Below, one piece after another: positions 1,570 to 27,030 of a stretch of DNA of 36,100 nt. The DNA is from Candidatus Woesearchaeota archaeon (GTDB taxonomy: Archaea; Nanobdellota; Nanobdellia; SCGC-AAA011-G17; GW2011-AR17): NCBI GenBank assembly GCA_964358335.1, contig CAYHOW010000001.1:1-36100 (forward strand), written 5' to 3'. Below the pieces are notes generated by a model. The model saw only the letters and a program-made list of their open reading frames with translations, did not search any database and was not told the DNA's origin. Positions within the stretch are counted from its first letter, which is position 1. Each line of letters opens with the position of its first letter. The translations under genes and the position numbers were made by a program.

Positions 1570-1573
1570 GTAA

Positions 1574-2113: not shown

Positions 2114-2124
2114 AACAGAAATAA

Positions 2125-8619: not shown

Positions 8620-8637
8620 TGAAAAAAGGGGTAATCC

Positions 8638-10842
8638 ATGCGTCCTATAGACACCAGCACTAAAAAAATCTTAGAGAAGTACGGTGCGAAGATAGACTCG
8701 AAGTCGGGCACCAACATAATGGACATGCCTGCCGAGAAAGATGTGTTCTCCAAGGACTATTCGGTTTTCAGGGAAGAGGCGCTGAGACTGAGCAACACGT
8801 TCTATGAGCGGGCATGCAACTATGCCGAGAACTTAGTCAAGGTAGAGCCAAAGCCTGAAGATGCGGCAAAGCTAATGGAGGCCATCGACAGGACGCACCT
8901 CAACATAACGCCAACAGGCGCGTTCAGCCTTGCCACCTTGACGATGGCGGTATCGGTGCTGTTCGGCTTTGCAATAGGATTCGTATCGTACCTGCTTCTG
9001 GACAAGGCGCAGATATTCCTTGCATCGTTCTTTATCCTCGGCGGAATATTCTCATTGAAGCCGCTGAGCAAGTACCCAATATACCTGGCCGCGAAATGGA
9101 GGCTCCAGGCCTCGAACCAGATGGTGATGTGCATCCTCTACATAGTCATGTACATGAGGCATACGTCCAACCTTGAGCACGCGCTGATGTTCGCAGGGGA
9201 GCACGTGGGCAATCCGCTTGCCTTGGACCTCAGAAAAATCATGTGGGACGTCGAGACGAGGCGGTTCTCTACAGTGAAGGAGGCGCTTGACAACTATCTT
9301 GACAGCTGGAAAGATTATAATCTGCCTTTCGTTGAATCGTTCCATCTCATTGAAGGTTCCGTCGTCGAAGGCGATGCTAAAAGAAGGTTAGAGATGCTTG
9401 AGAAAGCTTTAGAGGTTATGCTTGAGGGCACGTACGAGAGCATGCTCCACTATGCGCAGAACATCAAGAACCCAATCACCACGCTGCACATGCTTGGCGT
9501 GATACTGCCAATCCTTGGCCTGATTGTCCTGCCTCTGCTGGGGAGCTTCCTTGGCGTCAAGTGGTACCAGCTCGGGCTGATTTACAATTTCATACTGCCT
9601 CTTGTCGTCTACTTCATAGGGTACAGCATAATGTCCAAGCGCCCCGTCGGATACGGCCAGAGCGGGATGTTCGAGGACAGCCCAAGGTTCGCCAACCTAA
9701 GGATGCTGCAGATAGGAGAGGGGGAGAATGTGTCCTACATCGAGCCGAAAAGCGTTGCTACTGCCATAATTTTCGTGTTCATGGTCATAGGGATGCTGCC
9801 CCTGATAATCCATCTCGTTGACCCCGCGTTCGATATCACATTCCCAGATCCCATAGGCGGAAAGCTTATAGATTACAGGACTGTCGAGACACAGGAAGGC
9901 GAGACGGTCACCATAGGGCCGTTCGGCTTGGGCGCCTCCTTGCTCAGCCTGCTGATACCGTTCGGGATAGCGTTCGGCCTGAGCACATACTACAATATAA
10001 GGAGCAAGAAGCTCATCGACATAAGGAACGAGACAGTCAGGCTGGAGAAGGAATTCCAGGGCGCATTGTTCCAGGTCGGCAACAGGCTCAGCGGAGGATT
10101 CCCCACAGAGATGATATTCGGCGATGTCGCACAGAACCTCAGAGGCACGCCTACAGGAGATTTCTTCAAGGTTGTAGACAGGAACATAAGAAGCCTTGGA
10201 ATGAGCATCGAGCAGGCAGTATTCGACGAGAAGGTCGGAGCCATAAACTATTATCCTAGCTCCCTGATTGAAAGCTCGATGAAAGTCCTAATCGAGACGT
10301 CTAAGAAGGGGCCGCAGGTCGCGTCAAAAGCACTGATGAGCATCTCAATCTACCTTGACAGGATAAACAAGGTCAACGAGAGGCTGAAAGACCTGCTCTC
10401 GGAAATCATAGGGTCTATGCGTGCGCAGATATCTTTCCTTTCCCCCATAATCTCGGGAATTGTCGTAGGCATAGGCAGCATGATAACGTCCATCATAGGA
10501 GGCCTGGGCTCAGCACTGGAGACGACCGCGGCCCCTGAAGAGGACGACGCTGCAGCCGCAGGGCTCGGCGCAGGCGGCCTGACCGACATATTCGACCCGT
10601 CGACACTGATGCCCCCTTTCTTCTTCCAGATTGTCGTCGCAGTCTACCTAATCCAAATCGTCTACATACTCTCAGTGATGGCAAACGGAATCGAGTCGGG
10701 AGTGGACAAGCTCAACGAGGAATACACGCTCGGCAAGAACCTCTACAAGAGCTTCATGTTCTATCTCATAGTCACGGCTGTTACAATAATCGGGTTCAGC
10801 CTATTGGCCAAGATGATATCCGGCGCGGCGGTGGCACAATGA
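8638..10842 (+). CDS. polytopic membrane protein, probable pilus platform protein (FlaJ/TadC/PilC-like)
   Basis: 734 aa with many TM segments separated by soluble helical regions. It lies immediately downstream of the ATPase behind a GGGGT RBS. The assignment rests on position and topology, not on a named motif. Confidence 0.55.
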   Translation: MRPIDTSTKKILEKYGAKIDSKSGTNIMDMPAEKDVFSKDYSVFREEALRLSNTFYERACNYAENLVKVEPKPEDAAKLMEAIDRTHLNITPTGAFSLATLTMAVSVLFGFAIGFVSYLLLDKAQIFLASFFILGGIFSLKPLSKYPIYLAAKWRLQASNQMVMCILYIVMYMRHTSNLEHALMFAGEHVGNPLALDLRKIMWDVETRRFSTVKEALDNYLDSWKDYNLPFVESFHLIEGSVVEGDAKRRLEMLEKALEVMLEGTYESMLHYAQNIKNPITTLHMLGVILPILGLIVLPLLGSFLGVKWYQLGLIYNFILPLVVYFIGYSIMSKRPVGYGQSGMFEDSPRFANLRMLQIGEGENVSYIEPKSVATAIIFVFMVIGMLPLIIHLVDPAFDITFPDPIGGKLIDYRTVETQEGETVTIGPFGLGASLLSLLIPFGIAFGLSTYYNIRSKKLIDIRNETVRLEKEFQGALFQVGNRLSGGFPTEMIFGDVAQNLRGTPTGDFFKVVDRNIRSLGMSIEQAVFDEKVGAINYYPSSLIESSMKVLIETSKKGPQVASKALMSISIYLDRINKVNERLKDLLSEIIGSMRAQISFLSPIISGIVVGIGSMITSIIGGLGSALETTAAPEEDDAAAAGLGAGGLTDIFDPSTLMPPFFFQIVVAVYLIQIVYILSVMANGIESGVDKLNEEYTLGKNLYKSFMFYLIVTAVTIIGFSLLAKMISGAAVAQ

Positions 10843-10940
10843 TTTCGATGAGGTCCATAGTGCTGCTGCTGCTTGCGATAACCTTAGGATTGATATTGAT
10901 AGGAGCAATAATCAAGTTCAAAAATGCGACGCTTGGATAA
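10839..10940 (+). CDS. 33-aa single-TM micro-ORF (not in the ORF track)
   Basis: The sequence is MISMRSIVLLLLAITLGLILIGAIIKFKNATLG*. Its ATG overlaps the platform gene stop (ATGA). It conflicts with the 10924 start of the next gene by 17 nt. Confidence 0.3.
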   Translation: MISMRSIVLLLLAITLGLILIGAIIKFKNATLG

Positions 10941-11730
10941 AAAAGGTGCGGGGCTGGAGATGGAATCTCTCGTTAAGATAATCCTGCTAGTCGTGTTCCT
11001 GGTGATAGCTGCCATATTGATAGTGTCGTTCTTCACTGCGGCATCCACGAGCAAGACCAAAGTCTACGGGTGCTGGATAAGCAACGGCATAATGGCAAGC
11101 AACGCCATAACGAGGGGCGCGATGAGCGTGCCGTGCAAGCAGGAAATCATAGAGAACCCACTCTCTAAAGACGAGCTCGCCGTATATCTGAAGGACGTGT
11201 GGTTCATGTTCGGAAAAGGCAAGTGGGATTTCCATATAACCAGCGACGATTGGATAATTGTCACGGCATTCAAGATGAAAGAGGATGTCACGCTGAAAGA
11301 CCTGTACCTGCACCTCATGACGCACAAGGGAGCACGCAGCCTGGTGGAGGGCGGAACTCTCGACCTGAAGGACTTGGCGTCTTCCGATTACAATTACCTG
11401 CAGTCAGGCTCGCCAGGGCAGACCGTATGCTTCCATGAGGACCTCAAGCCCAAGGACGGCATTGCCGGACTGGCCAAGGGCAAGGTGTACTACATCCTGT
11501 TCTGGGACGACACGGCGAGAGGGAGCTCTACCGGAGACAAGATAATCATAACAACCAAGCCGGAGGTTGTGGTGAATGCCATAGGCTGCTGCACGTTGCA
11601 GACTGGCCAGTGCGTCACGCTCAATGGCGACAAGTGGTACGATTACACTAACGCCATAGGCAACCTGGTCGTGGGCTATGGATGGGCCAAGCCGGGAGCG
11701 CCTACAATAACCCCTGGCAAGATGTTTTGA
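10924..11730 (+). CDS. prepilin-like protein (class III signal peptide), 268 aa
   Basis: The N-terminus is MRRLDKKG/AGLEMESLVKIILLVVFLVIAAIL. The alternative start ATG 10960 (MESLV...) has a GGTG about 12 nt upstream. Confidence 0.65.
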   Translation: MRRLDKKGAGLEMESLVKIILLVVFLVIAAILIVSFFTAASTSKTKVYGCWISNGIMASNAITRGAMSVPCKQEIIENPLSKDELAVYLKDVWFMFGKGKWDFHITSDDWIIVTAFKMKEDVTLKDLYLHLMTHKGARSLVEGGTLDLKDLASSDYNYLQSGSPGQTVCFHEDLKPKDGIAGLAKGKVYYILFWDDTARGSSTGDKIIITTKPEVVVNAIGCCTLQTGQCVTLNGDKWYDYTNAIGNLVVGYGWAKPGAPTITPGKMF

Positions 11731-11739
11731 AGTGAGAAC

Positions 11740-11898
11740 ATGAAACACAAACAAGGAAAGCTCGAGGTCGAGTACATCGCCATCATAGTCTTGGCGCTGA
11801 TGGTGCTCGTGATATTAGTCATATTCTCAGACACTATACGCCAAAAGATTGTCGAAGGCGTCACGACATTCTTCGACGAGATAGTGAGAGGCAGATGA
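11740..11898 (+). CDS. 52-aa mini prepilin-like protein (below the ORF-track cutoff)
   Basis: The sequence is MKHKQG/KLEVEYIAIIVLALMVLVILVIFSDTIRQKIVEGVTTFFDEIVRGR*. It fills the 11731-11899 gap exactly, and its stop lies 1 nt before the next ATG. Confidence 0.55.
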   Translation: MKHKQGKLEVEYIAIIVLALMVLVILVIFSDTIRQKIVEGVTTFFDEIVRGR

Positions 11899-11899
11899 A

Positions 11900-13714
11900 A
11901 TGGAAAGGGAATACGTGGTCAGCTTCATGCCGATAATCTCCGTCATATTAATAATCGGGGCCATAGCCTACATGTATTATCCTAAAGTGTTCGACGATGT
12001 CTCAAACATAGCGAAAGACGTCTTCAAGTTCGGGCAGAAAGAGAAGAACATCAAAAGCACGCAGTACGTCGCTGAATCCATACTCTCATCGCTTGAGTTC
12101 TGCCAAGGCCAGGAGCCAGTAGGGTGCTCGTGCGAGATCAAGAACAAGAAGCCGATACCTAAAGATTACAAGATATTCTTCAAGCTAGTCCAAGGATCTT
12201 CCGGGAAGACGGACATGCTGATATACGCTTTCTCCGACCAGGACGAGATAATACCAATCAAGCTTGACGCAAAGGGGCTCAAGCTGGACAACATGAAGCT
12301 TGGAGTCGCATACTGGGCAAACTGCCCGGAGTGCGGGGACGACAAGGCCTACGGAGACATATATTGCGTATTCAACTCCGAGCTCGCGGGCAAGGATTCC
12401 CCGATGATACTCAAGGGCGACGCGCAGCAGGACTGGGCCTTGGCATATTATAATTCGCAGGGCGTCCCGTTCGACCAGCTGTCTGCAGGCTCCGAGTACA
12501 GCCAGATGAGCCGCATAGGCAACATAATCAAGTTCGACGACAACAGGTACTGCTTTGTAACCACAAACCTCTTAAGGCCTGGCGACGACAGCAAGTTCAG
12601 GCCGATAACCCTGAAGAAGACCGATGATTTCGTAAAGATAATGGATGTGGCAAAGAGCGATCAGACTATTCTTACTTCCAGGGGCGCAGTCTCAACAAAT
12701 TTCAAGATAGGACTGCAATGGCCGCCTGTATGGACAGAGAAGGAGGGGAGGGCGCTGCCTGACATGAACAAAATAGAGGCTATGAGCAAGATGAAGTTCG
12801 CCTTCGGCAGCTGCGAGCTACTTAAGAAAAGCGCCACTGCATGGAGGTCGAGCGTCAGGGACGATGACATGCTCGATGCTGAAACCAAAGAGCTCTTAAG
12901 GCCTTTCGCATGGCCCATCGCCCCGTCAGGCGAAATGAAAGTGGTCTGCGATTCCAAGAACGTCGACGGCAAGCCCGTATTCTGGATAGACAGGATTAAG
13001 GCTCCGGCCAACACTCCCGTACTGGCTTCGACTGATGCGGAAGTCATGGAGGTGTGCGACGAGAAATGCCTGCCCGGAAAGAAATATGTCATACTGAAGG
13101 ACAAGGTCGAGGCCGCCTCAAGGACTATACAGAGCTCAGACTACTCAGTCAGCGACCAAGGCGTTATAGCCAATCAGCCAGGCGAGCTTAACATCCTGAA
13201 CAACATATCCGTCCTGATTTATTTCGGCAACCTAAATACAGTCAATAAGCAGAAAGTTGCATTGGGCTCCAAAGTCCTTATGGGTGACATCATCGGGGCA
13301 TTGGGGGACCCGCTCGACAGGAAAGGGCCGTGGCTTGACTACAGGGCTGCTTACGCTGATGCAGGAAGCCCTGCCACGGGGCAGTTCTTCAGCTATCTAA
13401 TCAGCGCTGTGAGGCAGCAAGGCTATAACATCGCCGTCTATCCCGACTTCGTCAAGGACAGGAACGTGATATTCGCCAGGGAGTTCAGCCCGTATGCTTC
13501 ACTTCACGCCGGCGGAATAAAGCTGGCCAAGACATTCTATGAGGGCTGCGACAACCCGTCAACGCCAAACAGCGAGCTTGACGATGCAATAAGATTGGAA
13601 GCTAGTTTCGGGCAGTCCTACAGGCGCTCCGATTTCGCCTACGAGGACCCTAGCTGGAAAGACAGCATCAAGGCCGAGCAGGCCAGCAACCCTAGAAGCT
13701 ATAGAAACATTTAA
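11900..13714 (+). CDS. N-terminally anchored large exported protein with a degenerate LytM/M23-like domain
   Basis: The TM segment is FMPIISVILIIGAIAYMYY. FAWPIAPSG...FWIDRIKAPANTPVLASTDAEVMEV and VALGSKVLMGDIIGALGDPLDRKGPWLDYR follow the M23 layout, but the His ligands are replaced. Confidence 0.6.
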   Translation: MEREYVVSFMPIISVILIIGAIAYMYYPKVFDDVSNIAKDVFKFGQKEKNIKSTQYVAESILSSLEFCQGQEPVGCSCEIKNKKPIPKDYKIFFKLVQGSSGKTDMLIYAFSDQDEIIPIKLDAKGLKLDNMKLGVAYWANCPECGDDKAYGDIYCVFNSELAGKDSPMILKGDAQQDWALAYYNSQGVPFDQLSAGSEYSQMSRIGNIIKFDDNRYCFVTTNLLRPGDDSKFRPITLKKTDDFVKIMDVAKSDQTILTSRGAVSTNFKIGLQWPPVWTEKEGRALPDMNKIEAMSKMKFAFGSCELLKKSATAWRSSVRDDDMLDAETKELLRPFAWPIAPSGEMKVVCDSKNVDGKPVFWIDRIKAPANTPVLASTDAEVMEVCDEKCLPGKKYVILKDKVEAASRTIQSSDYSVSDQGVIANQPGELNILNNISVLIYFGNLNTVNKQKVALGSKVLMGDIIGALGDPLDRKGPWLDYRAAYADAGSPATGQFFSYLISAVRQQGYNIAVYPDFVKDRNVIFAREFSPYASLHAGGIKLAKTFYEGCDNPSTPNSELDDAIRLEASFGQSYRRSDFAYEDPSWKDSIKAEQASNPRSYRNI

Positions 13715-13762
13715 ATATTCATTTTCGTTTAGTTATCCTAGAAATCAAAGGGGTGCAGAAAA

Positions 13763-14125
13763 GTGGAATCTAACAAGAAAGGCATGGAGATATCCTTGAA
13801 TTTTGTCATTATCGCAGTATTGGCATTGGTTGCACTGATTGTCATCGCATTGTTCTTTACAGGAGGCATGTCCAGGATAATCGGCAAGGAGAAGACCGTC
13901 GTTGAGCTCACCGAGCAGGACATAGCCCTGGCTGAGAGCGCATGCAAGCTGTCCTGCACATTGTGCCAGAAGGGGCAGTTCGATAATCCTGCCGTATCAC
14001 AGGCAATGAAGGATAGGTTCGCAATTACCTCTACAGGGGACGGAGCCCTGAACTGCGAAAAGATGCCAAACGTCGGCGCAGGATATTGGGACAAGAACTG
14101 CAGGGCCAAGTGCGAAGCAAAATAA
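13763..14125 (+). CDS. prepilin-like protein, 120 aa, Cys-rich C-terminal domain
   Basis: GTG start with a GGGGTG RBS. The N-terminus is (M)ESNKKG/MEISLNFVIIAVLALVALIVIAL. A T-rich tract follows the stop. Confidence 0.7.
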   Translation: MESNKKGMEISLNFVIIAVLALVALIVIALFFTGGMSRIIGKEKTVVELTEQDIALAESACKLSCTLCQKGQFDNPAVSQAMKDRFAITSTGDGALNCEKMPNVGAGYWDKNCRAKCEAK

Positions 14126-14162
14126 AAACTTTTATTAATCTTCTTCTTTTCTTACTTATATC

Positions 14163-14354
14163 ATGAAAACAAACAAAAAAGGGGTAGAGCTCACGCTGAA
14201 CACCGTCATACTTGCCATTCTGGCAGTCATGGTGCTCGTTGTCGTCACAATCATATTCATCAAGGGCTCCGGCTATTTTGTCGACAAGCTGAAAACCATC
14301 TGGGACCAGATTGCCGGACTTAAGCCTAACCTGTCAGGCGCTATACCAAAATGA
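14163..14354 (+). CDS. 63-aa short prepilin-like protein
   Basis: The N-terminus is MKTNKKG/VELTLNTVILAILAVMVLVVVTIIF. Its stop overlaps the next start (ATGA). Confidence 0.7.
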   Translation: MKTNKKGVELTLNTVILAILAVMVLVVVTIIFIKGSGYFVDKLKTIWDQIAGLKPNLSGAIPK

Positions 14355-15568
14355 CCCTGAAAAAAAGAGGTTCGGAAGAGTCGTTCAGCTTTCTCATAGG
14401 CATACTGCTGATGATACTTATACTCACGCCGATAATAATCATCGCATACAGGGCTTTCGCCGAGAAGCAGGGCGTCGAGAAGTGCTTCACCGAGATTGTC
14501 GATATATCTGCCAAACTGAAGGACGGGCAGGAGCAGGAAATACTGTGCAGGTTCCAGAAGGATTACGTGCTCATGGGCTTTGACGCCAAGCAGCCTGCGA
14601 TAGTGACCCCGTTCACAGACGCATCAAGCATAATCAGCTCTCCAAAGCAGCTGACTTACGCCAAGCCTGAAGTCTGCAGCTCGGGCTCAACCGACGAAGG
14701 CATAATAAAAGACGAACTGGGGTGCCTATGCTTCTGCTCAGACCCTGGACAGCCTATAGCATACAATAGGAAATGCTCCGGCAAGACCAGCTGCGCCCAG
14801 TTCAAGGACGTAAGGACAATAAGCGGGTTCCAACTGTGGAACAAGGACGGGTACAGGGAGACTTCCGGAAAGTACTGGAGCTTTGTCAAAACCCCATATA
14901 AGCTCATCAAGGGAGTAGGCGAGGAGGAAGTGAGGGCAAGGGTAACTTCAGGCAAACTGGCTGCGTCGGCCAACCTGATTGTCTTCGGCCAGGACCAAGT
15001 GCTTGGCGTCCTCATAAGGAAGTCCGGAGATGAGCTTAAGATATGCGTCCCTGGATACGACTGCGACTACACCAAGAAATATCCATGGCACCAGTTCGCA
15101 TTGGACATAGAGTCGTGCAGGACTGAGGCCAACGACAACTGCCTCTGCAAGGAAATAGAGTATGAGATACTTCCAAACTCCGACTTTGTCATCGCAGCCG
15201 ACAAGCAGAACAATGTTAACAGGATAGGCAATTATTATCCTAGCAAGCCGGAAGACAAGCAGTACGAATGGATAACCGATTATTCAGGCAGGCTTTGCAC
15301 TTACGACGGCAGGTCGTCCGAAAAGAAAAAGTACGTAGAAAGGTTTTCCCTTCTGGAGCTCTATCCGGAAAGCCAGGGATATACGATGAGCAAGAGAAAG
15401 GTACAGCCTATAAAGGTAGGAACCGACGTCTGTTTCCTCACCTATGCTGACGTTGAATCGTTAAAACTGCCTTCATGCTACGTTAAGCCCGCAGCATCTA
15501 CTGCTCAGCCACAGCCGCCTGCCGCTGTCACGCAACCCCCCACGCCGGGCACTGTCAGCCTGAGGTAA
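14351..15568 (+). CDS. prepilin-like protein, 405 aa, Cys-rich exported domain with Pro/Ala/Thr-rich tail
   Basis: The N-terminus is MTLKKRG/SEESFSFLIGILLMILIL. About 18 Cys are spread through the mature part. The C-terminus is PAASTAQPQPPAAVTQPPTPGTVSLR. Confidence 0.7.
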   Translation: MTLKKRGSEESFSFLIGILLMILILTPIIIIAYRAFAEKQGVEKCFTEIVDISAKLKDGQEQEILCRFQKDYVLMGFDAKQPAIVTPFTDASSIISSPKQLTYAKPEVCSSGSTDEGIIKDELGCLCFCSDPGQPIAYNRKCSGKTSCAQFKDVRTISGFQLWNKDGYRETSGKYWSFVKTPYKLIKGVGEEEVRARVTSGKLAASANLIVFGQDQVLGVLIRKSGDELKICVPGYDCDYTKKYPWHQFALDIESCRTEANDNCLCKEIEYEILPNSDFVIAADKQNNVNRIGNYYPSKPEDKQYEWITDYSGRLCTYDGRSSEKKKYVERFSLLELYPESQGYTMSKRKVQPIKVGTDVCFLTYADVESLKLPSCYVKPAASTAQPQPPAAVTQPPTPGTVSLR

Positions 15569-15600
15569 TGTTTAAATATCCGTTTCCCGTCTTAATTTGC

Positions 15601-15957
15601 ATGGATAAAAGGGGCCAGGCAGAAGTTTCTGAGATGACTGTAATATTCGAGATACTTATAGCTGTCGTTGTCGGCACTTTCTTTGTCTTGGCCGCATTGA
15701 CTTTCAACCAGCACACAAAGTTCAATAAAATATACCTCGAAGAGGATTCCAAGCTGATGTACAATGCCCTGGCTTCCTCGCCCAGCCACATAAGGTACAA
15801 TTACACGCATGCGAAGATGTACCGGATAAACGTCAGGGATGATTCCGTTGAAGTGACCAAGGACATGAAGGTGTCCGAGCTGGGAATGCGGAGCACGCTG
15901 ATTTATGAAAAGTTAGGCCCGTTAAGCCAACTCACTGCGCAGGTGAAAAATGTTTAA
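15601..15957 (+). CDS. prepilin-like protein, 118 aa
   Basis: I prefer the internal ATG 15601 to the track start 15568. It gives MDKRG/QAEVSEMTVIFEILIAVVVGTFFVLAAL. Confidence 0.65.
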   Translation: MDKRGQAEVSEMTVIFEILIAVVVGTFFVLAALTFNQHTKFNKIYLEEDSKLMYNALASSPSHIRYNYTHAKMYRINVRDDSVEVTKDMKVSELGMRSTLIYEKLGPLSQLTAQVKNV

Positions 15958-16447
15958 GAACGCGCAGTACGACCTCAGCAGGAAAGCGCTGTATTTCATC
16001 ATAGTGATATTTTTCCTTGCTGTCATGTTCATAATACTTAACTCGGCGTTCAGGACGCTTGACGTCAGGATACTGACAACCAGCCAGAGCATGGCTCAGA
16101 AGGTCCTGATGAACGAAGCGCTATATTCGCCTCTCTGTTTCGCCTATGTAGACAAGGATACAGGCAGGGCGCATCCGGGCATAATAGACGCATCAAAGTT
16201 CAATAGCGCAAACCTCTACACTTCGTGCGGCAGGTATTTCAAGGACAGGTTCGTCGTCTACCTTGCCAGAGGGGAACAAAAGAACAATATCAAATACCTC
16301 ACTTACCCGGCTTACGTCAAGAAAGCATCGCTGCCTAAAGTGGGGAAGGAAGACGCCGCATATAATAATTATATGGCCAGGCCAGTGATAATCTATGATA
16401 ACGGAAAATTCGAAAGAGGTGCCTTAGTTGTCGCATATGCGCAATAA
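15950..16447 (+). CDS. N-terminally anchored exported protein, 165 aa (atypical pilin-like)
   Basis: An 8-nt overlap with the preceding gene. The TM segment is ALYFIIVIFFLAVMFIIL, and there is no clear K/R-G cleavage motif. Confidence 0.55.
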   Translation: MFKNAQYDLSRKALYFIIVIFFLAVMFIILNSAFRTLDVRILTTSQSMAQKVLMNEALYSPLCFAYVDKDTGRAHPGIIDASKFNSANLYTSCGRYFKDRFVVYLARGEQKNNIKYLTYPAYVKKASLPKVGKEDAAYNNYMARPVIIYDNGKFERGALVVAYAQ

Positions 16448-17225
16448 AAGGGGACAGGCTGAAGACATATTCTCTGACCTGATACCCGCAATCATAATAC
16501 TTGTAATCGGCATAATAGTCATAGCGAAGGTGGATTCGACCAATAAGCTCGAGACAAGCAAGCTTCTGTCCAATAACCTCCTGGCCGACAGGATGACCGG
16601 GCTGGCCCTGCTGAAGTCGCCATTCGACGTCAAGCAGGCCAACGATATAGGGTATTCTGGCTCTTTCGTTGATTTCATTAATCAGCTCAGGCTGATTCGG
16701 CCTTCTGACACCGACCTGATAAACAAGTTGTCTGAAGCCAAGCTAGGAAAGTTCTTCTCATATTCAACATCCACAGGCGAGGTGCAGCACGGGTCGAGCG
16801 CCGCGTTCCAGTGCAAGGAAAACCTTTACTGGCATATTAATGAAGGATTCTTGGGCAACTATTTGACTTGGGTAGTCAGGGTATATGAGGAGGATGCCAA
16901 TGGAGGCAATAACCGCCTCTTGTTCATCTGCACAAGCGACATCTATGCCTATAATGACTACAATAACAAGCAGGAGAGCCTCGTTGAAAAAAATAACGGG
17001 TGCTTTTCCGAGAACAGCGCCAGGTACGATAGGGCGCTGCTTTACGGCCAGCTTGGCGGCAAGGGCAATTCTGTTGACAGGGGAGACATGTTCAGCGCCA
17101 TGATAACCCAGCCTACGCCTGACAAGTCCAAGATAATTTCGATGTTCATAGATTATTCGGATTCGACATGCCCGCTCAATCCTGAGCGCGAGACAGTTTA
17201 TGAAATAAAGGCTGAGACAAAATGA
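16437..17225 (+). CDS. prepilin-like protein, 262 aa
   Basis: I prefer ATG 16437 to the TTG at 16428. It gives MRNKRG/QAEDIFSDLIPAIIILVIGIIVIA. Its stop overlaps the next ATG (ATGA). Confidence 0.65.
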   Translation: MRNKRGQAEDIFSDLIPAIIILVIGIIVIAKVDSTNKLETSKLLSNNLLADRMTGLALLKSPFDVKQANDIGYSGSFVDFINQLRLIRPSDTDLINKLSEAKLGKFFSYSTSTGEVQHGSSAAFQCKENLYWHINEGFLGNYLTWVVRVYEEDANGGNNRLLFICTSDIYAYNDYNNKQESLVEKNNGCFSENSARYDRALLYGQLGGKGNSVDRGDMFSAMITQPTPDKSKIISMFIDYSDSTCPLNPERETVYEIKAETK

Positions 17226-18670
17226 CAATAAAACCAAGGCTCAGGAAGAAGGCGGCAGCCATACTGTTGCTGTCATCCATAGCTTTCCTAGCGTCCATAT
17301 TCATATTCAATATCGTAAACCAGAAAGCCAAGGCCGGGCCGCAGGTAGAGTACCTCGGAGAAGCCCAGCTTGAACTGTTCGACTATTACGCTTACGGCGA
17401 CGAGATGCTGTTCTATCTTGACAATGCCGCAAGATACTCGGCTGAGCCTATTGCTTTGAAAGATGGGATGACTGACACCGAGTACATCGCGCTGTTCAAG
17501 CAGAATTTCGCGGCTTACCTCGCTAATTTCAACAAGCTATACTACACGAGGCCTTACCTATTCAATGACAACTATTCGTTCTCCGTGAGCGATGGCAGGC
17601 TTATGCTCTCCACTCTTTTTGAAATCCCTGTATTCGGGGATACTGTGCCGCGCAACATCCAGACCCAAGTGGACTACAGAATCAATCCATCTTTGGTGTA
17701 CAGGAACGACAGCCTGAAGAAGCTAAAGCTAGGCGCGAAGCCTCTTATCACTGCTCCGGTTGCGCCTGCAGAAGTCACGGCCAAAGTGGAAACCCCCTCT
17801 ACAGTATCTCTGAGGCCCGCAAGCGAATATTTCCCATTCATAGTCATATCCGACCTCCAGATAGGCGACCAGAACAAGGAATGGTTTAAGTCCGGAGTCA
17901 GCCAGATAATCAGCCTCAACCCCGAGCTCGTGATAATCAACGGCGACATGATTGATGCCAACCCTTCAGACGCCGAAAGCAAGCTTGACAGGATGTGGTC
18001 ATATTTCGATTCGAATGTTAAGAAAAAGCTCGGCTCTGCTAACTTGGCAATGATACCTTCGGCGGGAAACCATGACGCTTTCGGAGGCAAGTACGAAAAG
18101 TTCTGGAACTCGTACAAGCCCGGCGTAGAGAACCTTAAGGGGAGCTATCCCAAATACTATTCGTTCGATTACAAGAAGAACCATTTCGTTGTGCTTTATA
18201 CAGTGACTTACAATATTGATGCGGAACAGCTCGCATGGCTCATCGAGGACTTGACTTCAGCCAAAGGGAAATACAACAACATCTTCGTGTTCGGCCATAT
18301 CCCCCTGCAGCAGATATGCTTCCAGCTAAGCCATTGCTCGACGACATTGAAGCCGAAAGGCCAGCTGCTTAACCTTCTCAGGGAAACCGGCGTGAAATTC
18401 TATTCAAGCGGCCACCACCACGCCTACAACAAGGGCAGCCTGAACGGCGTCGACATGATATCCAGCGGCTCGATGTACGTGTCTTATCTGGAGTTAGGCC
18501 AGACGAGCTCAGGAAGCACATACAGGCAGCAGCCCTCGTTCCTTTTCATTGACGTCAACGGCAACAAGGTCTCTGCCAAGTCTTATACCGGGACGGGCTT
18601 CAGCTCGGTGTTCGACGAGAGCAATCTCCATCAGGTTCCGGGATACGATGCCCTTGTATCCGTATCTTAG
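17222..18670 (+). CDS. membrane-anchored calcineurin-like metallophosphoesterase, last gene of the pilus operon
   Basis: The N-terminal TM segment is AAAILLLSSIAFLASIFIF. The motifs are ISDLQIG (D-x-Q/G type), NGDMID, AGNHD, FGHIP and SGHHH. Confidence 0.8.
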   Translation: MTIKPRLRKKAAAILLLSSIAFLASIFIFNIVNQKAKAGPQVEYLGEAQLELFDYYAYGDEMLFYLDNAARYSAEPIALKDGMTDTEYIALFKQNFAAYLANFNKLYYTRPYLFNDNYSFSVSDGRLMLSTLFEIPVFGDTVPRNIQTQVDYRINPSLVYRNDSLKKLKLGAKPLITAPVAPAEVTAKVETPSTVSLRPASEYFPFIVISDLQIGDQNKEWFKSGVSQIISLNPELVIINGDMIDANPSDAESKLDRMWSYFDSNVKKKLGSANLAMIPSAGNHDAFGGKYEKFWNSYKPGVENLKGSYPKYYSFDYKKNHFVVLYTVTYNIDAEQLAWLIEDLTSAKGKYNNIFVFGHIPLQQICFQLSHCSTTLKPKGQLLNLLRETGVKFYSSGHHHAYNKGSLNGVDMISSGSMYVSYLELGQTSSGSTYRQQPSFLFIDVNGNKVSAKSYTGTGFSSVFDESNLHQVPGYDALVSVS

Positions 18671-19598
18671 CCAAGTATCTCTCTTTCCTCACCTTCTTGA
18701 ACCAGCTCCTGTACTTCAGCTCCGATAGCTTCAACCTTAATTCCGAGTAAATACTGCTGTGCTTCCTGATAAGGTAGCTGTTGCCCTCTATCATAGTTTC
18801 AATCTCGGGTATGCGGCTGTGTATGTTCTCTGCGTTCCTCAGCTTCAGGTATTCCGCATCGAACTCTCTCATCCTGTCTTCCCATCTCCATGAAGCCCTG
18901 CCAGACAATATGCCTGATATTTTTCCGATGTTCGGAGTGCCTATGGCCTTCCTTATCCTGCTCGAGTTAAGCTCCTTCCTCAGCCTGCCTTCATGCCTTC
19001 TCAAGACCGCATCATAGTTAGGATACTGGCTTAATCTTTTTCCCCTGTACCTGACATTCTCGCCTATGCTCCTTACAACTTGCCATTCGTCTATCCTCTC
19101 AGAATCTTCCTCTACGCTAAGCCTCACTTCCCGACTATATTTTCCGCAGAACTCCTCGGCGTAATATTCGTCGCCCCTTGAATTGACGACTATGCTGACC
19201 AGGATGCCTTCCAGCGTGCCCTTCGATGGGTAGTGGGCTTTTTTAGCTAGCAGGCTGTTATATTTCTCTGCCAATGGCATGATTGTCGATGCGACATGGC
19301 TGTCATCCATCCCTGAATGGAACACATCGAAGCTGCCATGGCTGTGCCATATGCCGAGAACCCTCTGGTTCATCCTATAGCATCTATTGAAAACGCTTTC
19401 CAATCCGTAACTTGTGCACGACGCATAATCTGCGTCTTGCTCAGGAATATAGCTGTGCCTTGCGTAATCGTTCCCGTAATCGCTGAGGATGAGGCCTTCG
19501 CATTCTATATCTGCGCCCACTATCTCCGACACCAAATCTGCAGTCATCTTTATCTCCTTGACGAGCCTTTTGCTGATCACCTCTCTTGACATCTGCAT
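18600..19598 (-). CDS. JAB/JAMM-family metalloprotease with ~180-aa basic helical C-terminal extension
   Basis: A Glu lies in IECEGLIL. The JAMM motif HSHGSFDVFHSGMD (HxHx7Sx2D) is encoded at 19305-19346. Alternative starts are at 19592 and 19547 (AAGGAG RBS). The first start overlaps the E1 stop by 22 nt. Confidence 0.85.
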   Translation of the reverse strand: MQMSREVISKRLVKEIKMTADLVSEIVGADIECEGLILSDYGNDYARHSYIPEQDADYASCTSYGLESVFNRCYRMNQRVLGIWHSHGSFDVFHSGMDDSHVASTIMPLAEKYNSLLAKKAHYPSKGTLEGILVSIVVNSRGDEYYAEEFCGKYSREVRLSVEEDSERIDEWQVVRSIGENVRYRGKRLSQYPNYDAVLRRHEGRLRKELNSSRIRKAIGTPNIGKISGILSGRASWRWEDRMREFDAEYLKLRNAENIHSRIPEIETMIEGNSYLIRKHSSIYSELRLKLSELKYRSWFKKVRKERYLAKIRIQGHRIPEPDGDCSRRTPS

Positions 19599-20905
19599 CT
19601 TGTTTCCCCCCTAGACTTGTTTTCGAGAATGTTGAACTTCCTTTTGTTCCCGCTCTTCGAGCTGTATTCGAACCTCTTTTCCAAGAATGTAGACCTTGAC
19701 ACTATCTCCCCTGCGACCAGCGCGCCTATGAAGGCGTTGGTCATCACGACGTTCGATTCACTTACTTCTGCGCAGCCCTGCGGCCTTAACCCGGCCAGCC
19801 TATCGAAATCGTACCTGCATCCCATGCATGAATTCGTTAGCGGGATATACGCCTCGGCTATCGCGTTGAAAGGCGTCACTGCAGCATTGATCATCATCGT
19901 GGAAGTCTCCATTGCGTGCCTGTTCAGCAGCCTTCTTGCTTCCCAGTTGTCTGCGCAGCAGACTATCGCGTCGTATTCTGGCAGGCCCCGCAATGTCCTT
20001 TCCGTGATATGGCTGCCTCTCGCTGTTATTTTAGCTTCCGGAACTATATGCTTCAGCCTCGACTCCAGCACGTCGGCCTTCTTCTCGCCGATGCTTCCGT
20101 AATAGAGAAGCTGCCTTGCAACGTTATGGCCCTCAATTATGTCGCCGTCATAGACGTCTATTTCTACGCCTTCAAGCGCAAGATTCAAGGCCACATAAGT
20201 CCCTATGCCGCCTGCGCCGCAAATCAAAACCTTCTTCCTATTGTCGACCATAGAGTATAACGGGATTTCCTTTGCGCTGAACCTGCGCTCCAGAGACGCC
20301 CCGTAATTTATCCTTCCGGCATAATTGCTGTCACCTTCCAGAGGAGAAACAACCTTTCTTATCTCGTCCAAAATCACGGCGGACATCAGGCCGCTGGGAT
20401 AGCCCCCCTGCCTCAGGCTGGCGAACTCCTCAAGGCACTGGCGGGGCATCGCTCTTGCAGCCTTCGTCTTGTCCCTCTTGAATATCGCGCTAGACGACGT
20501 CCCTGAAGACGATGCGCTGACGAACAACCTGATATTTTCAGCCGCATAGAAATGGTCCAAGCAAATATCTTTTGTCCTAGGGCTGTTGCTCAGGTCCAGA
20601 AGCACGTCGGGGCAGCCCATGAGATAGCCGTCAGCCTGCAATGGCACCGCCTCTATTCTCATACCGTCATTTATGGCCATGATTTTATCTTCCATGCCTA
20701 AGACCTTGAATTTGCCTTTTTCTCTCAAGAGAAACTCTTCCCTCTCATACCCTATAGAATCGTCTATAACCCTTATGTTCCTTAAGCCAAGCCCTGCCAT
20801 GTAGAAGCAGATGTAGTTGGCCAATGCGCCGCACCCAACGATGGTGGCGCTGCCTTTGCCAATCATCTCTTGGTTCAATGCCCAGTTCCTTGAATAGTCT
20901 ATCAT
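19577..20905 (-). CDS. E1-like (ThiF/MoeB/UBA-family) adenylating enzyme with two Rossmann modules in one chain
   Basis: The C-terminal module is canonical: VLICGAGGIGTYVALNLALEGVEIDVYDGDIIEGHNVARQLLY, CCADNWEARR and CMGC. The N-terminal module has IVGCGALANY...RVIDDS and LDLSNSPRTK but lacks the NLxRQ motif. Confidence 0.9.
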   Translation of the reverse strand: MIDYSRNWALNQEMIGKGSATIVGCGALANYICFYMAGLGLRNIRVIDDSIGYEREEFLLREKGKFKVLGMEDKIMAINDGMRIEAVPLQADGYLMGCPDVLLDLSNSPRTKDICLDHFYAAENIRLFVSASSSGTSSSAIFKRDKTKAARAMPRQCLEEFASLRQGGYPSGLMSAVILDEIRKVVSPLEGDSNYAGRINYGASLERRFSAKEIPLYSMVDNRKKVLICGAGGIGTYVALNLALEGVEIDVYDGDIIEGHNVARQLLYYGSIGEKKADVLESRLKHIVPEAKITARGSHITERTLRGLPEYDAIVCCADNWEARRLLNRHAMETSTMMINAAVTPFNAIAEAYIPLTNSCMGCRYDFDRLAGLRPQGCAEVSESNVVMTNAFIGALVAGEIVSRSTFLEKRFEYSSKSGNKRKFNILENKSRGETRCRCQER

Positions 20906-20909
20906 TCTT

Positions 20910-21899
20910 TCAGTAGTTCAATGCCACGACATTATTAGATCCGCAACTTAGCTTTTTTGCCGCAAAAGTACTTTCTGTGAGCTTGTGCCATGACCTTTCG
21001 TGGCTTGTGTATTCCGTAGTCAGCACCTTCCTTCCCTTGCGCATAAGCTCCATGATCTGCATCCTCGCATCCCCTGGATATTTCTGGATAATGGATTCAT
21101 AACTGAAACCGCCCACACATACCTGCTGGTACGCCTTGTCATTTTCTGGCAATGAGGGATGGCTGTAGCTGTCCATCACCTGCAGGCAGCCCCATTCTAT
21201 ATAGCCATCACTGATGCTGAGCCTGCTGCCCACCCTTGCCTTGCCGAACTGGTAGTATGCTCCGTTGCTGCGCTCGTAAAGTGCGTAAGGCCTGACCTCC
21301 GTAAACACGTAGAAGTCACCGTCCTCTATCAAGAAGCCAATCTCTTTCTCCTTGTCATAATAGTGCGCCTTTCCAGCTATCCCCTCGAGATTGCCATCTT
21401 CAGGAAACAACGCGTCGTCTAGCATTGCCTGATACTTCCTTTCCAGATGCTCAATCGCGCACGGATTTTTCTGCGCGCTATAGCGTCTGCCGTTGACCCT
21501 CACTGTCCCGCCCATGTCCTCATAGATGGCGTACCACGAGCCGCATCTTACCAGTATGCCATCCTTCGGTATCACCTTGCTGATTATCGAAGCGCCTTCG
21601 TGCGGCATATACCCCCTGTATATATTGCCCAAGACATCCTCGACAATGAACCTCACCAGCTTCATGTTTCTGCTTTCATCCATCCATGGACGCACATCCT
21701 CCCTCAAGTATCCTCTGCGTCTCAGGTCTGAGAAATAGATCTTCTCCAGGACGTCTAGCCTTACCGGCATGCTAGTGATGTCCACGATGCCGTTGCCGCC
21801 CTTCACATTGCTCTTACTTATCTGATAGACGCTATCTTCTATAACGAAGAACGCGCTGTTCATTGCGTGCGTGCAGAACGTGCTCTTTGGCCTGTTCAT
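20910..21899 (-). CDS. hypothetical 329-aa protein of the E1/JAB cassette; C-terminal region is a candidate E2-like (UBC-fold) domain
   Basis: It overlaps the upstream gene by 4 nt and ends 4 nt before the E1 start. SHPSLPENDKAYQQVCVGG (encoded at 21117-21161) resembles the HPN...C signature of E2 enzymes. No other motif was recognised. Confidence 0.6.
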   Translation of the reverse strand: MNRPKSTFCTHAMNSAFFVIEDSVYQISKSNVKGGNGIVDITSMPVRLDVLEKIYFSDLRRRGYLREDVRPWMDESRNMKLVRFIVEDVLGNIYRGYMPHEGASIISKVIPKDGILVRCGSWYAIYEDMGGTVRVNGRRYSAQKNPCAIEHLERKYQAMLDDALFPEDGNLEGIAGKAHYYDKEKEIGFLIEDGDFYVFTEVRPYALYERSNGAYYQFGKARVGSRLSISDGYIEWGCLQVMDSYSHPSLPENDKAYQQVCVGGFSYESIIQKYPGDARMQIMELMRKGRKVLTTEYTSHERSWHKLTESTFAAKKLSCGSNNVVALNY

Positions 21900-22303
21900 T
21901 GTCTGGCGCCCACCGAAGTTATCTGGCCCACAACCATCTCGATGCAGTCGAAATCCTCGTCGTCAATGCTCCTCCTCTTTATGTAAGGCGCGACGCCCTC
22001 GTCCAGCGCCCTTATCGTCGAGCTGTTGCTATTGATGTAGCTGCCTTCATTGTCGCATGCCCTTATCTCGCAGATGGTCGAGCTGCCGTTGTGCTGCTGC
22101 ACATAGCCCGTGACTTCGTCAGCCAATTGCTTGTCCTCGCTCTGGACACCGTCAACCATATACCCTATGAGGTCCCTGAAAGTGCCAGTCCTCAGCTTGC
22201 CGTCCAGCGGCCTGATGACCGCCTTGTCCCTGCTTATGTCGCCGTCAAGCTCCACCATGTGCCTGTTGGTCTCCGTGTCCAATATCCCAATCAAGTTAAC
22301 CAT
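21896..22303 (-). CDS. hypothetical 135-aa protein, first gene of the E1/JAB cassette; candidate Ubl/modifier
   Basis: A GGAGGT RBS lies 8 nt upstream of ATG 22303. The C-terminus is ...EMVVGQITSVGARQ, with Gly residues near the end. No recognisable catalytic motif. Confidence 0.55.
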   Translation of the reverse strand: MVNLIGILDTETNRHMVELDGDISRDKAVIRPLDGKLRTGTFRDLIGYMVDGVQSEDKQLADEVTGYVQQHNGSSTICEIRACDNEGSYINSNSSTIRALDEGVAPYIKRRSIDDEDFDCIEMVVGQITSVGARQ

Positions 22304-22334
22304 TTTATCTCTTACCTCCGTTATTTCTATCTGC

Positions 22335-22346
22335 AGAACACGTTCT
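22335..22346. promoter_or_regulatory. short inverted repeat AGAAC-N2-GTTCT between a TATA-like box and the RBS of the E1/JAB cassette
   Basis: agaacacgttct reads as 5-bp arms with a 2-nt spacer, about 32 nt upstream of ATG 22303. Confidence 0.2.
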
Positions 22347-22464
22347 CAAAACAGTTTAATAACTTAACGAAAAAAAAGTGCCCTTTTTTCTTTAGGTTCC
22401 GCAATGCTTGCGGACAGCACCGGAAATGGTTAATTTTTTAAGCTCTAAGATATTCGTTATAGGC

Positions 22465-25732: not shown

Positions 25733-25764
25733 TTTTGCTGATTTCAACTACATATGGTGATATA

Positions 25765-27030
25765 ATGCAATCGGGAAATGATTATGAAGTGAAGGACCTA
25801 TCCCTTGCCGCGCAAGGCAGGAACAACATCGAGTGGGCTTCCATGCACATGGGCGCCCTGATGAGCATAATGGAATCGTTCGGGCAACAGAAGCCTCTGC
25901 GAGGGGCAAGGGTCGGCATAGCGCTGCACGTGACTAAAGAGGCCGCCAACCTGGTCAGGACGCTGCAGGCAGGCGGAGCTGAGGTTGCAATAACAGGCTG
26001 CAACCCTCTCTCAACGCAGGACGATGTCGCTGCCGCTCTCGCTTCTGAAGGCGTGAAAGTGTGGGCATATAAGGGCGAGACGACTGAAGACTATTACAGG
26101 TACCTGGAGAACATAATAAAATTTAAGCCTAACATAACCATGGACGACGGATGCGACCTGGTGAGCCTGATACATCTGAAGCATCCCGGGCTTATACCTT
26201 CGATAATCGGAGGGTGCGAAGAGACAACCACCGGCGTGATAAGGCTGAAGGCGATGATGAAGGATTGCTCGCTGAAGTATCCTATGATAGCCGTCAACGA
26301 TAACAAGACGAAGCATCTACTGGATAACTATTACGGCACCGGGCAGTCGACGCTTGACGGGATACTGAGGGCAACGAACATCTTATTGGCCGGCAAGACT
26401 GTCGTCGTGGCAGGCTACGGAGACTGCGGGAAAGGCTTCGCGCTGAGGTCTAGGGCAATGGGCGCCAACGTCATCGTCACTGAGATTGATTCTTTCGCCG
26501 CCATTAAGGCAGTATACGATGGGTTCAGGGTCATGAGGATGGACGCCGCATTGAAGGAAGGCGACATCTATTGCACACTTACCGGAAACAAGCACGTCAT
26601 CACAACGGCGCATATGCAGAAGATGAAGGACGGTGCGATTTTAGCCAACTCCGGGCATTTCGACATCGAGATAGACGTGAAAGGATTGGAGGCCATAGCT
26701 AAATCAAAGCGCAGCATACGGCCTTCCCTAGATGAGTATACTTTGGATAATGGGAAGAGGATATATCTCTGCGCCGAGGGAAGATTGGTGAACTTGGCAG
26801 CTGCCGAAGGCCATCCTTCCGAAGTCATGTCGACAAGCTTCTGCGGACAGGCTCTCGCTTGCGAGTATCTGGTTAAGAACAGGGGCAAGCTTCCTGTGGA
26901 TGTCATAACATTGCCAGAATCCATTGACAACAAGATAGCAGCGATACAGCTCAGCGCTATGGGCGTCAAGGTGGATAAGCTGACAACAGATCAGAAGGAA
27001 TATCTCTCTAGCTGGAGAGAGGGGACATAA
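25765..27030 (+). CDS. ahcY: S-adenosyl-L-homocysteine hydrolase
   Basis: Family signatures are GCNPLSTQDDVAAAL, CEETTTGV, DNYYGTGQSTLDGILRATN and VVVAGYGDCGKG. I prefer ATG 25765 to the TTG at 25735. Confidence 0.95.
   Translation: MQSGNDYEVKDLSLAAQGRNNIEWASMHMGALMSIMESFGQQKPLRGARVGIALHVTKEAANLVRTLQAGGAEVAITGCNPLSTQDDVAAALASEGVKVWAYKGETTEDYYRYLENIIKFKPNITMDDGCDLVSLIHLKHPGLIPSIIGGCEETTTGVIRLKAMMKDCSLKYPMIAVNDNKTKHLLDNYYGTGQSTLDGILRATNILLAGKTVVVAGYGDCGKGFALRSRAMGANVIVTEIDSFAAIKAVYDGFRVMRMDAALKEGDIYCTLTGNKHVITTAHMQKMKDGAILANSGHFDIEIDVKGLEAIAKSKRSIRPSLDEYTLDNGKRIYLCAEGRLVNLAAAEGHPSEVMSTSFCGQALACEYLVKNRGKLPVDVITLPESIDNKIAAIQLSAMGVKVDKLTTDQKEYLSSWREGT

Follow-up and report, generated by a model that had tools for sequence, protein, structure and literature searches.

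A four-gene cassette of DPANN archaea that probably encodes a ubiquitin-like conjugation system

RESULTS AND DISCUSSION

A conserved cassette of four linked genes

We analysed a 36,100-nucleotide (nt) stretch of genomic DNA from a Candidatus Woesearchaeota archaeon (assembly GCA_964358335.1, contig CAYHOW010000001.1, positions 1 to 36,100; hereafter named the window), which carries a cassette of four tightly linked minus-strand genes at positions 18600-22303. The cassette probably encodes a self-contained ubiquitin-like (Ubl) conjugation system of DPANN archaea, made up of a modifier, an E2-like carrier, an E1 and a JAMM peptidase. The best reading of the locus is a system of Ubl, E2, E1 and deubiquitinase that is similar to Bil (Bacterial ISG15-like), specific to DPANN archaea and placed outside the Bil, Bub, CBASS and SAMP systems, with the Ubl and E2 folds being predicted. 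A candidate Ubl conjugation system had been proposed at this locus from the nucleotide sequence alone (hereafter named the sequence-only reading). The proposal withstood the present analysis and gained support from two further features, an invariant glycine followed by a variable tail in the smallest protein and a His-Pro…Cys (HP…C) motif in the 329-amino-acid (aa) protein.

The list of open reading frames (ORFs) and a reading of the sequence agreed with the gene order, lengths and junctions given by the sequence-only reading. From 5′ to 3′ on the minus strand, the genes encode a 135-aa candidate Ubl precursor (21896-22303), a 329-aa candidate E2-like carrier (20910-21899), a 442-aa E1 (19577-20905) and a 332-aa JAMM/MPN+ peptidase of the JAB type (18600-19598), together 1,238 aa. 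A single GGAGGT Shine–Dalgarno (SD)-like site on the same strand (22314-22319) lies 10 nt 5′ of the first ATG of the cassette, inside a divergent intergenic region of 104 nt (22304-22407). The first two genes overlap by 4 nt (ATGA), the second and third are separated by a 4-nt gap (TGA-AAGA-ATG), and the third and fourth overlap by 22 nt, with an SD-like G-rich run preceding the start codon of the JAB gene. GC skew is strongly negative over 18-22 kb, which fits minus-strand coding. Scans of the window for tRNAs and Rfam families were empty, and a scan of the window for sigma-70 promoters and terminators gave matches at chance level only.

Equal-length orthologues of all four proteins were found in another assembly (locus L001) at 64-84% identity and in a more distant assembly (L004) at 29-41% identity, and many further assemblies contain cassette orthologues down to ~25-35% identity. 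Since equal-length orthologues of all four exist in other assemblies, the four ORFs are real genes. We then surveyed the locus using a pattern scan based on the E1 alignment, with one genome per species, which yielded 49 loci whose partner genes were identified by local hmmsearch. A full-length two-module E1 was present at 35 loci; the 329-aa family was found at 34 of these, the JAB at 32 and both at 31, and in every such locus the partners were adjacent to the E1 gene and on the same strand. The genes occurred as 329-aa family–E1–JAB at 16 loci (the window type), 329-aa family–JAB–E1 at eight (the order of BilA-B-C-D) and JAB–329-aa family–E1 at seven. None of the 11 single-module ThiF loci from the same scan had either the 329-aa family or the JAB. 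Two more loci (L010 and L011), found from the side of the 329-aa protein at ~20% identity, have the order small protein–329-aa family–JAB–E1. The sequence-only reading had asked for a survey of this four-gene architecture, and the co-conservation is strong, in three gene orders and down to ~20% identity.

The genomes carrying relatives are labelled Nanoarchaeota, Woesearchaeota, Nanoarchaeia, Nanobdellota, Aenigmatarchaeota and ‘Euryarchaeota SM23-78’, some of these bin labels being doubtful. The surroundings of the cassette vary. The window also carries Taw1, PilB-type ATPase and TnpB genes, in keeping with an origin from a DPANN archaeon, and the cassette at L009 is flanked by eIF-1A/KH and MetRS genes. 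Because the neighbourhoods differ between lineages, the cassette itself is the conserved unit.

Several metagenome-assembled genomes (MAGs) contain two paralogous cassettes, often with unlike gene orders (L025 and L037, L030 and L039, L035 and L041, and L034 and L044). The pairing of cassettes in one genome suggests at least two functionally distinct subfamilies. One of these loci, L039, has two JAB genes within a single cassette.

The E1 is a fused pseudo-dimer with an intact C-terminal active site

The profile matches and residue pattern of the 442-aa protein identify it as an E1 in which a degenerate N-terminal ThiF domain is fused to an intact adenylation domain. Its earlier assignment as an E1/ThiF-type adenylating enzyme was confirmed by a match to Pfam ThiF of 9.4e-42, which falls into two stretches. 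The inactive adenylation domain (IAD) at the N-terminus (residues 1-215, nt 20261-20905, minus strand) is ThiF-like with a degenerate GxGxxG and without NxxRQ. This domain alone gave 28.4 bits against Pfam ThiF, reaching the gathering score, and distant orthologues gave up to 72.6 bits. The active adenylation domain (AAD; residues 216-442, nt 19577-20260, minus strand) has the full ATP/Mg residue set, namely GAGGIG at 230-235, D253/D255, N261/R264/Q265, K276 and D319/R324, together with a CxxC…CxC zinc site formed by C360/C363 and C437/C439.

Alignment of 31 family members showed no or hardly any variation at the nucleotide/Mg residues of the C-terminal domain, at the zinc cysteines and at Cys378; the ATP/Mg site, on whose integrity the sequence-only reading had made its proposal depend, is intact. 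In the same alignment neither the NxxRQ motif nor the P-loop glycines survive in the N-terminal module. It retains a DYSR(N/Q) motif including Arg6, which is a candidate arginine finger given to the active module. Cys378 is invariant and is located in a 14-residue crossover loop after the zinc ligand Cys363, with a conserved ESNVVM helix next and no separate CYS domain. Judged by this position, Cys378 is a crossover-loop cysteine like that of ThiF, UbaA and UBA5.

When the E1 family profile was compared with PDB, the best solved relatives within the best 60 of 80 matches were UBA3 and SAE2, the catalytic subunits of the NEDD8 and SUMO E1s, level with MccB and ThiF. Single-sequence scoring of the adenylation domain placed ThiF/MoeB models closest (NCBIfam TIGR02356, 102 bits; PDB ThiF), and all ThiF/MoeB equivalog scores of the protein were far under their NCBIfam cut-offs.

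In one Aenigmatarchaeota MAG (L049, 4250-5642) the two E1 modules are encoded separately, by overlapping N-terminal and C-terminal ORFs. Either a frameshift or an assembly mistake could account for this, or the E1 could truly be a split heterodimer.

The small protein ends in a tail like that of a Ubl precursor

The 135-aa protein is acidic (pI 4.5) and has a glycine, Gly132 (codon 21908-21910), preceded by a strand-like DCIEMVV segment and followed by a three-residue tail, ARQ. Comparison of 36 orthologues showed that the glycine is invariant, about 3-6 residues past a hydrophobic strand, with 0-9 variable residues after it. Examples of the tail at other loci are GRR, KI, GK and GLKLYM, and two orthologues stop exactly at the glycine. 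The family ranges from 114 to 196 aa, and its ORF lies directly upstream in essentially every locus, wherever sequence is available. An invariant glycine with a short variable tail is a signature of Ubl precursors. A word-indexed homology search with the 135-aa protein returned two relatives only, and distant orthologues had no match in Pfam.

An E1 that activates the C-terminus of a small protein also fits a different scheme, in which the activated terminus would undergo an intramolecular or small-molecule modification similar to those of MccB and PaaA or of a ribosomally synthesized and post-translationally modified peptide (RiPP), with the JAB removing a leader or tail and the 329-aa protein helping as an accessory enzyme or conferring immunity. 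Indeed, the best solved relatives of the adenylation domain include MccB and PaaA. Such contexts do exist, since tblastn against plasmids gave single-module ThiF matches only and the one inspected belongs to a YcaO-TfuA RiPP cluster. However, the substrate here is a conserved, folded-looking protein of 114-196 aa rather than a short hypervariable core peptide, and the invariant residue is Gly, whereas MccB and PaaA act on Asn/Glu. The E1 has no N-terminal peptide-clamp (RRE-like) domain, its N-terminal module being a ThiF domain, and no exporter or immunity genes were found in the flanks. The invariant crossover-loop cysteine and the presence of a second protein with a conserved cysteine point instead to a thioester relay. 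We consider this maturation scheme highly improbable.

The 332-aa protein is a JAMM peptidase

The 332-aa protein is, by its active-site residues, which are intact, a JAMM/MPN+ peptidase. The JAMM/MPN+ domain comprises residues 1-165 (19104-19598, minus strand) with Glu32, His85, His87, Ser95 and Asp98, all five conserved across the alignment of the JAB family. The exact motif reported by the sequence-only reading, HSHGSFDVFHSGMD, fits HxHx7Sx2D, and Glu32 upstream of it is invariant. The family profile matched P. furiosus JAMM1 in PDB (8e-4), followed by AMSH and Rpn11-like chains. Many orthologues are above the gathering score of Pfam Prok-JAB (up to 39.7 bits); the window protein itself scored 20.8 bits, under the cut-off of 25. 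The basic tail, described earlier as ~180 aa, was found to be the C-terminal 167 residues (166-332; 18600-19103, minus strand) with a pI of 10.3, and holds a conserved G179…L189…N194-Y195 motif.

A hydrophobic helix follows the MPN domain in four of 44 JAB orthologues (L008 8083-9756, L015 1840-3534, L009 9292-10533 and L019 6215-7477) and is absent from the window protein. At L008 and L015 a LysM domain comes after the helix, the implication being that the peptidase is anchored in the membrane and exposes a glycan-binding module outside the cell.

The 329-aa protein carries a conserved His-Pro…Cys motif

An exhaustive HMMER profile search placed the 329-aa protein in a family of at least 184 representative clusters, where a word-indexed homology search had returned four relatives only. 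The conserved part is a C-terminal domain of ~150 residues (approximately residues 175-320 of the window protein; nt 20940-21377, minus strand), and the N-terminal half varies in both length and sequence. Within the domain His247-Pro248 is invariant, and Gly188, Phe218, Cys261 and Tyr297 are near-invariant. Cys261 is 98% conserved, with Ser included in the rare substitutions. The family motif can be written as Y-x-H-P-[SAG]-[LIV]-x7-10-Q-x-I-C-x-G. Among 127 divergent members the only conserved polar residues are the His-Pro and the Cys 12-15 residues downstream, with no Glu or His conserved past Cys261. This conservation, with Ser among the rare substitutions, is what one would expect of a catalytic nucleophile; it suits a substrate lysine or a scaffold less well. 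The active-site pattern of UBC enzymes is H-P-N-[LIV]-x3,4-G-x-[LIV]-C, in which the HPN loop precedes the catalytic Cys by ~10 residues inside an alpha/beta fold. The HPx[LIV]…QxIC motif thus appears UBC-like, its HP loop resembling the HPN loop.

Neither the 329-aa nor the 135-aa protein had a match in Pfam, NCBIfam, PADLOC or PDB sequences, and so neither of the two proteins left unassigned by the sequence-only reading maps to a cofactor or sulfur-carrier family. When 127 members of the 329-aa family were scanned with Pfam, 25 families were listed, none with more than one member matching, and UBC and Prok-E2 models were absent from the list.

A conserved cysteine could also carry sulfur. 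If the cassette formed a sulfur-carrier pathway, the JAMM peptidase would expose the glycine of the 135-aa protein, which would be a carrier of the ThiS/MoaD/CysO type, as in Mec+/CysO and QbsD/QbsE, the E1 would adenylate and thiocarboxylate this carrier, and Cys261 would act as a persulfide relay or in sulfur insertion for a thio-cofactor or tRNA thiolation. The nearness of the adenylation domain to ThiF/MoeB in single-sequence scoring favours this alternative, and a C-terminal glycine with a tail removed by a JAMM peptidase is known from sulfur-carrier systems too. However, the low equivalog scores mentioned above stand against it, as does the lack of rhodanese/MoeZ, cysteine desulfurase, PP-loop ATPase, MoaE, ThiG or CysM genes in the cassette and flanks of the loci inspected. 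The variable N-terminal halves of the 329-aa family suit target recognition better than a fixed metabolic substrate. Moreover, E1s with a fused IAD and AAD are those of conjugation systems, namely canonical eukaryotic E1s and BilD, whereas ThiF, MoeB and Cap2 are homodimers (PMC10557695). Finally, L010 contains, 4 kb upstream of its cassette (1198-3320), a separate single-module ThiF (356 aa) with a ThiI/QueC-like protein and a 108-aa ORF. This is probably a classical sulfur-transfer module, with the composition expected of a genuine one, and its presence beside the cassette means that two E1 types coexist. Taken together, we regard a sulfur-carrier function of the cassette as unlikely.

Several results weigh against a complete conjugation cascade. 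Compared with the UBC pattern, the 329-aa family has Ser, Ala or Gly in place of Asn and a longer spacing between His and Cys. Profiles of this family (7 and 127 sequences) and of the small family (9 sequences) gave only chance matches against all PDB sequences. Using hhalign, the C-terminal domain of the 329-aa protein aligned with five canonical UBCs at 0.4% probability, and the small family aligned with Ub/NEDD8/SUMO and with ThiS/MoaD/SAMP/Urm1 at <0.3%. AlphaFold2 models reached a pLDDT of 37 for the 329-aa protein (3-sequence alignment) and 53 for the 135-aa protein (5-sequence alignment), and the Foldseek matches of both were noise, giving no confident UBC or beta-grasp fold, respectively. 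No target, E3 or effector was identified for the cassette. The sequence-only reading had also raised an association with defence islands, which was not borne out, as PADLOC and domain scans revealed no recognisable defence island in the window and flanks, and viral contigs contained no two-module E1 relative.

Negative fold searches are not unexpected for divergent prokaryotic Ubl and E2 proteins; the E2 nature of the Bil CEHH protein, for instance, was derived from sequence analysis and then confirmed by a crystal structure (PMC10557695). Nevertheless, they leave room for a system of Ubl, E1 and JAB that has the 329-aa protein as its dedicated target, as an adaptor or as an E3-like factor, with conjugation proceeding independently of an E2. 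SAMPylation runs in this way, on an E1 alone (PMC11354881), and the 329-aa protein gave no fold evidence for a UBC. On the other hand, the His-Pro and Cys as sole conserved polar residues, with the rare exchange of Cys for Ser, fit a nucleophile, and the 329-aa family is strictly linked to the operon over three gene orders. An E2-independent system therefore seems improbable to us, and we favour the 329-aa protein as a candidate E2.

Comparison with known prokaryotic conjugation systems

The closest analogue of the cassette is the BilABCD system, of which Type I and Type II (6C/CEHH) were described by Chambers et al. and Hör et al. and which has a four-part inventory of Ubl, E2, JAB and E1 (PMC10557695, PMC11601596). 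The E1 of this system, BilD, has the architecture IAD+AAD(+CYS), and its Ubls have a conserved Gly followed by up to nine residues that are trimmed by the JAB (PMC10557695). The cassette is alike in having all four parts in one operon without an E3, with the A-B-C-D order at eight archaeal loci, in its single-chain E1 with ThiF in both halves and catalytic residues invariant only in the C-terminal one, and in its modifier with a conserved Gly and a non-conserved tail of 0-9 residues in 36 orthologues. Since both the IAD+AAD E1 and the Ubl with Gly and trimmed tail have precedents in Bil, Bil is the nearest known system, and the single-chain two-module E1, which the sequence-only reading took to be unprecedented, is not. 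The wider claim made there, of several features that match no known system, was therefore overstated.

The differences from Bil are as follows. Although the cassette E1 keeps a four-cysteine zinc site, it does not have the ~80-aa helical CYS domain, and Cys378 lies in a 14-residue ThiF-like loop. BilB has a catalytic Cys with an adjacent downstream His, and the Type II protein has a CEHH motif (PMC10557695), whereas the candidate E2 has His-Pro upstream of its Cys and neither a C…E.H….H nor a Cys-then-His pattern. The modifier is a single protein of 114-196 aa with no detectable likeness to known Ubls. The hosts are DPANN archaea rather than bacteria, and no defence context was found at the cassette. 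In Bil, defence against phages works through conjugation of the Ubl to a virion protein. Membership of Bil was tested by the ~80-aa CYS domain and the CEHH/Cys-His pattern and rejected as both are absent; the cassette is not filed as a Bil member because the E1 has no CYS domain and the E2 candidate no CEHH pattern. No Bil-named chain occurred among the PDB matches listed for the four proteins and profiles (for the E1 profile, the best 60 of 80).

The cassette resembles the SAMP/UbaA/JAMM system (HvJAMM1, PfJAMM1) in being archaeal, in that P. furiosus JAMM1 is the best solved relative of its peptidase, and in the pairing of a zinc site with an E1 cysteine on a short crossover loop, also found in UbaA and MoeB. 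However, UbaA is a single-module homodimer and the cassette E1 a fused pseudo-dimer, and SAMP genes are dispersed and need no E2, whereas the cassette is a tight operon with a linked Cys protein at 34 of 35 loci and a tail-bearing modifier. The E1 scored 55.8 bits against NCBIfam NF047750 (SAMPActivE1UbaA), for which the cut-off is 450. With the two modules of the E1 and the linked fourth gene, this led us to reject SAMP/UbaA, in agreement with the distinction drawn by the sequence-only reading.

The operons of Caldiarchaeum subterraneum and Asgard archaea also combine a modifier, E1, E2-like protein and MPN+ peptidase, with an HP-type loop before the candidate Cys as in the cassette. Standard ubiquitin, UBC and RING profiles detect their components, and their E1 has a separate Cys domain (PMC11354881). 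In contrast, the cassette has a fused two-module E1 and no E3, and no member gave a match to the Pfam UQ_con, ubiquitin or RING models.

CBASS Cap2/Cap3 and Bub share with the cassette the combination of E1-type adenylation and a JAB peptidase in prokaryotic operons. As stated by the sequence-only reading, no cyclase/nucleotidyltransferase, sulfur-transfer or effector gene is attached, none being detectable in the flanks of the cassette. Type II CBASS was rejected because no CD-NTase or effector is present in the flanks and there is no E1-E2 fusion; PADLOC ‘E1-E2’ models align to E1 residues 222-368 only. Bub (6E/DUF6527) has a DUF6527 protease and an E1 and E2 without catalytic cysteines that use Tyr/Ser oxyester chemistry (PMC11601596). 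It was rejected as Pfam and flank scans gave no DUF6527 match and both Cys378 and Cys261 are conserved. PRTRC was rejected on a score of 46.7 bits against TIGR03736, with a cut-off of 144.75.

A proposed mechanism

On the basis of these data we propose how the cassette may work. Transcription of the four genes would start in the divergent intergenic region, and their translation would be coupled, as the observed overlaps suggest. The JAMM peptidase would trim the 135-aa precursor after Gly132, removing Ala-Arg-Gln, as suggested by the invariant Gly, the variable tail and the precedent of BilC and BilA. The 442-aa E1 would act as an intramolecular pseudo-dimer, with its N-terminal ThiF domain as a scaffold that probably provides the arginine finger, and its C-terminal domain, in which the required residues are observed, would adenylate Gly132 with ATP-Mg. 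Cys378 in the short crossover loop would then receive the modifier as a thioester and hand it over to Cys261 of the 329-aa protein, which has the invariant, HPN-like His-Pro loop. By analogy with Bil, the variable N-terminal half of the 329-aa protein may pick the targets, and the modifier would end as an isopeptide on a lysine residue without an E3. The JAMM peptidase may also undo the conjugation. Candidate targets are proteins of viruses or mobile elements (as for Bil), proteins of the archaeal cell itself (which would be regulated, or turned over by the proteasome, as in SAMPylation) or parts of the pilus-like apparatus described below.

If this is true, a widespread archaeal lineage of E1-E2-Ubl-DUB (deubiquitinase) cascades would be added in a group of genome-reduced symbionts. 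Complete non-eukaryotic cascades are known from a few bacterial defence operons (Bil, Bub and CBASS) and rare archaea with eukaryote-like parts. Full-text literature searches found no ubiquitin-like system of DPANN or Nanoarchaeota, which is no proof of novelty. The candidate E2 family, with its at least 184 representative clusters, and the modifier family are invisible to current domain databases and would be two families to name. The E1 architecture falls between ThiF/MoeB and the canonical E1s and bears on the evolution of pseudo-dimeric E1s and the E2 relay. The cassette also raises the question of what a genome of ~1 Mb tags and why the system is kept beside pilus genes, and, with four small proteins, it is attractive for reconstitution in vitro.

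A more far-reaching idea, which we offer tentatively and with some doubt, is that the cassettes represent an undescribed DPANN lineage of complete ubiquitin-type machinery. Its E1 would be a minimal ‘missing link’ that joins the fused inactive/active pseudo-dimer of canonical eukaryotic E1s to the crossover cysteine and zinc site of the ThiF/MoeB style, and its E2 would form a new HP…C family with variable N-terminal substrate receptors. One large subclade might be tied to the type IV pilus-like apparatus, for instance in the control of host attachment, and others to Ser/Thr kinases and AAA+ unfoldases.

Pilus-like operon and other neighbours

An archaeal type IV pilus-like operon occupies 4786-18670 of the window on the plus strand and converges with the cassette. 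It begins with a T2SSE/PilB-type ATPase gene (4786-8619, plus strand) interrupted by an intein with a LAGLIDADG domain, includes five plus-strand ORFs with class III prepilin-type signal peptides ([KR]G and then a hydrophobic helix; starts at 10924, 13763, 14351, 15568 and 16428), and ends with a gene for a membrane Metallophos protein (17222-18670, plus strand). The last 71 nt of the JAB gene (18600-18670) overlap the 3′ end of this convergent gene. The same tail-to-tail arrangement with the end of a pilus-like operon was found at 11 loci (L001, L004, L005, L007, L008, L012, L013, L022-L024 and L027), which form a subclade with E1 identity down to ~32% and both gene orders present. The linkage may reflect functional coupling or inherited synteny. 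The neighbouring genes and the LysM-anchored JABs could point to cell-envelope or attachment biology, to regulated proteolysis or, once more, to inherited synteny.

The pilus-like operon also encodes a 604-aa, weakly M23-like protein. Just upstream of the operon lies a TnpB/IS605 OrfB-type gene (3299-4510, minus strand) with OrfB_IS605, Cas12f1-like TNB and helix-turn-helix (HTH) domains.

At some loci an HTH_24/AsnC regulator and a 403-425-aa protein with coiled-coil and transmembrane segments are encoded directly downstream of the cassette. Elsewhere, the E1 gene is followed by that of an uncharacterised 259-298-aa protein, and Ser/Thr protein kinases and an AAA+/ClpB-like ATPase are encoded there as well. 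Lineage-variable accessory genes are found at L004 (3613-5240), L008 (9753-12005), L010 (12143-14793) and L011 (1009-4460 and 12650-15023).

The G+C content of the window alternates in kilobase-scale blocks between ~36-42% and 50-53%. The pilus-like operon and the cassette belong to the high-GC class, and the 23-25 kb and 27-30 kb segments to the low-GC class. Between the cassette and the Taw1 gene, the window contains genes that L001 and L007 lack, including that of an AdoHcyase (25735-27030).

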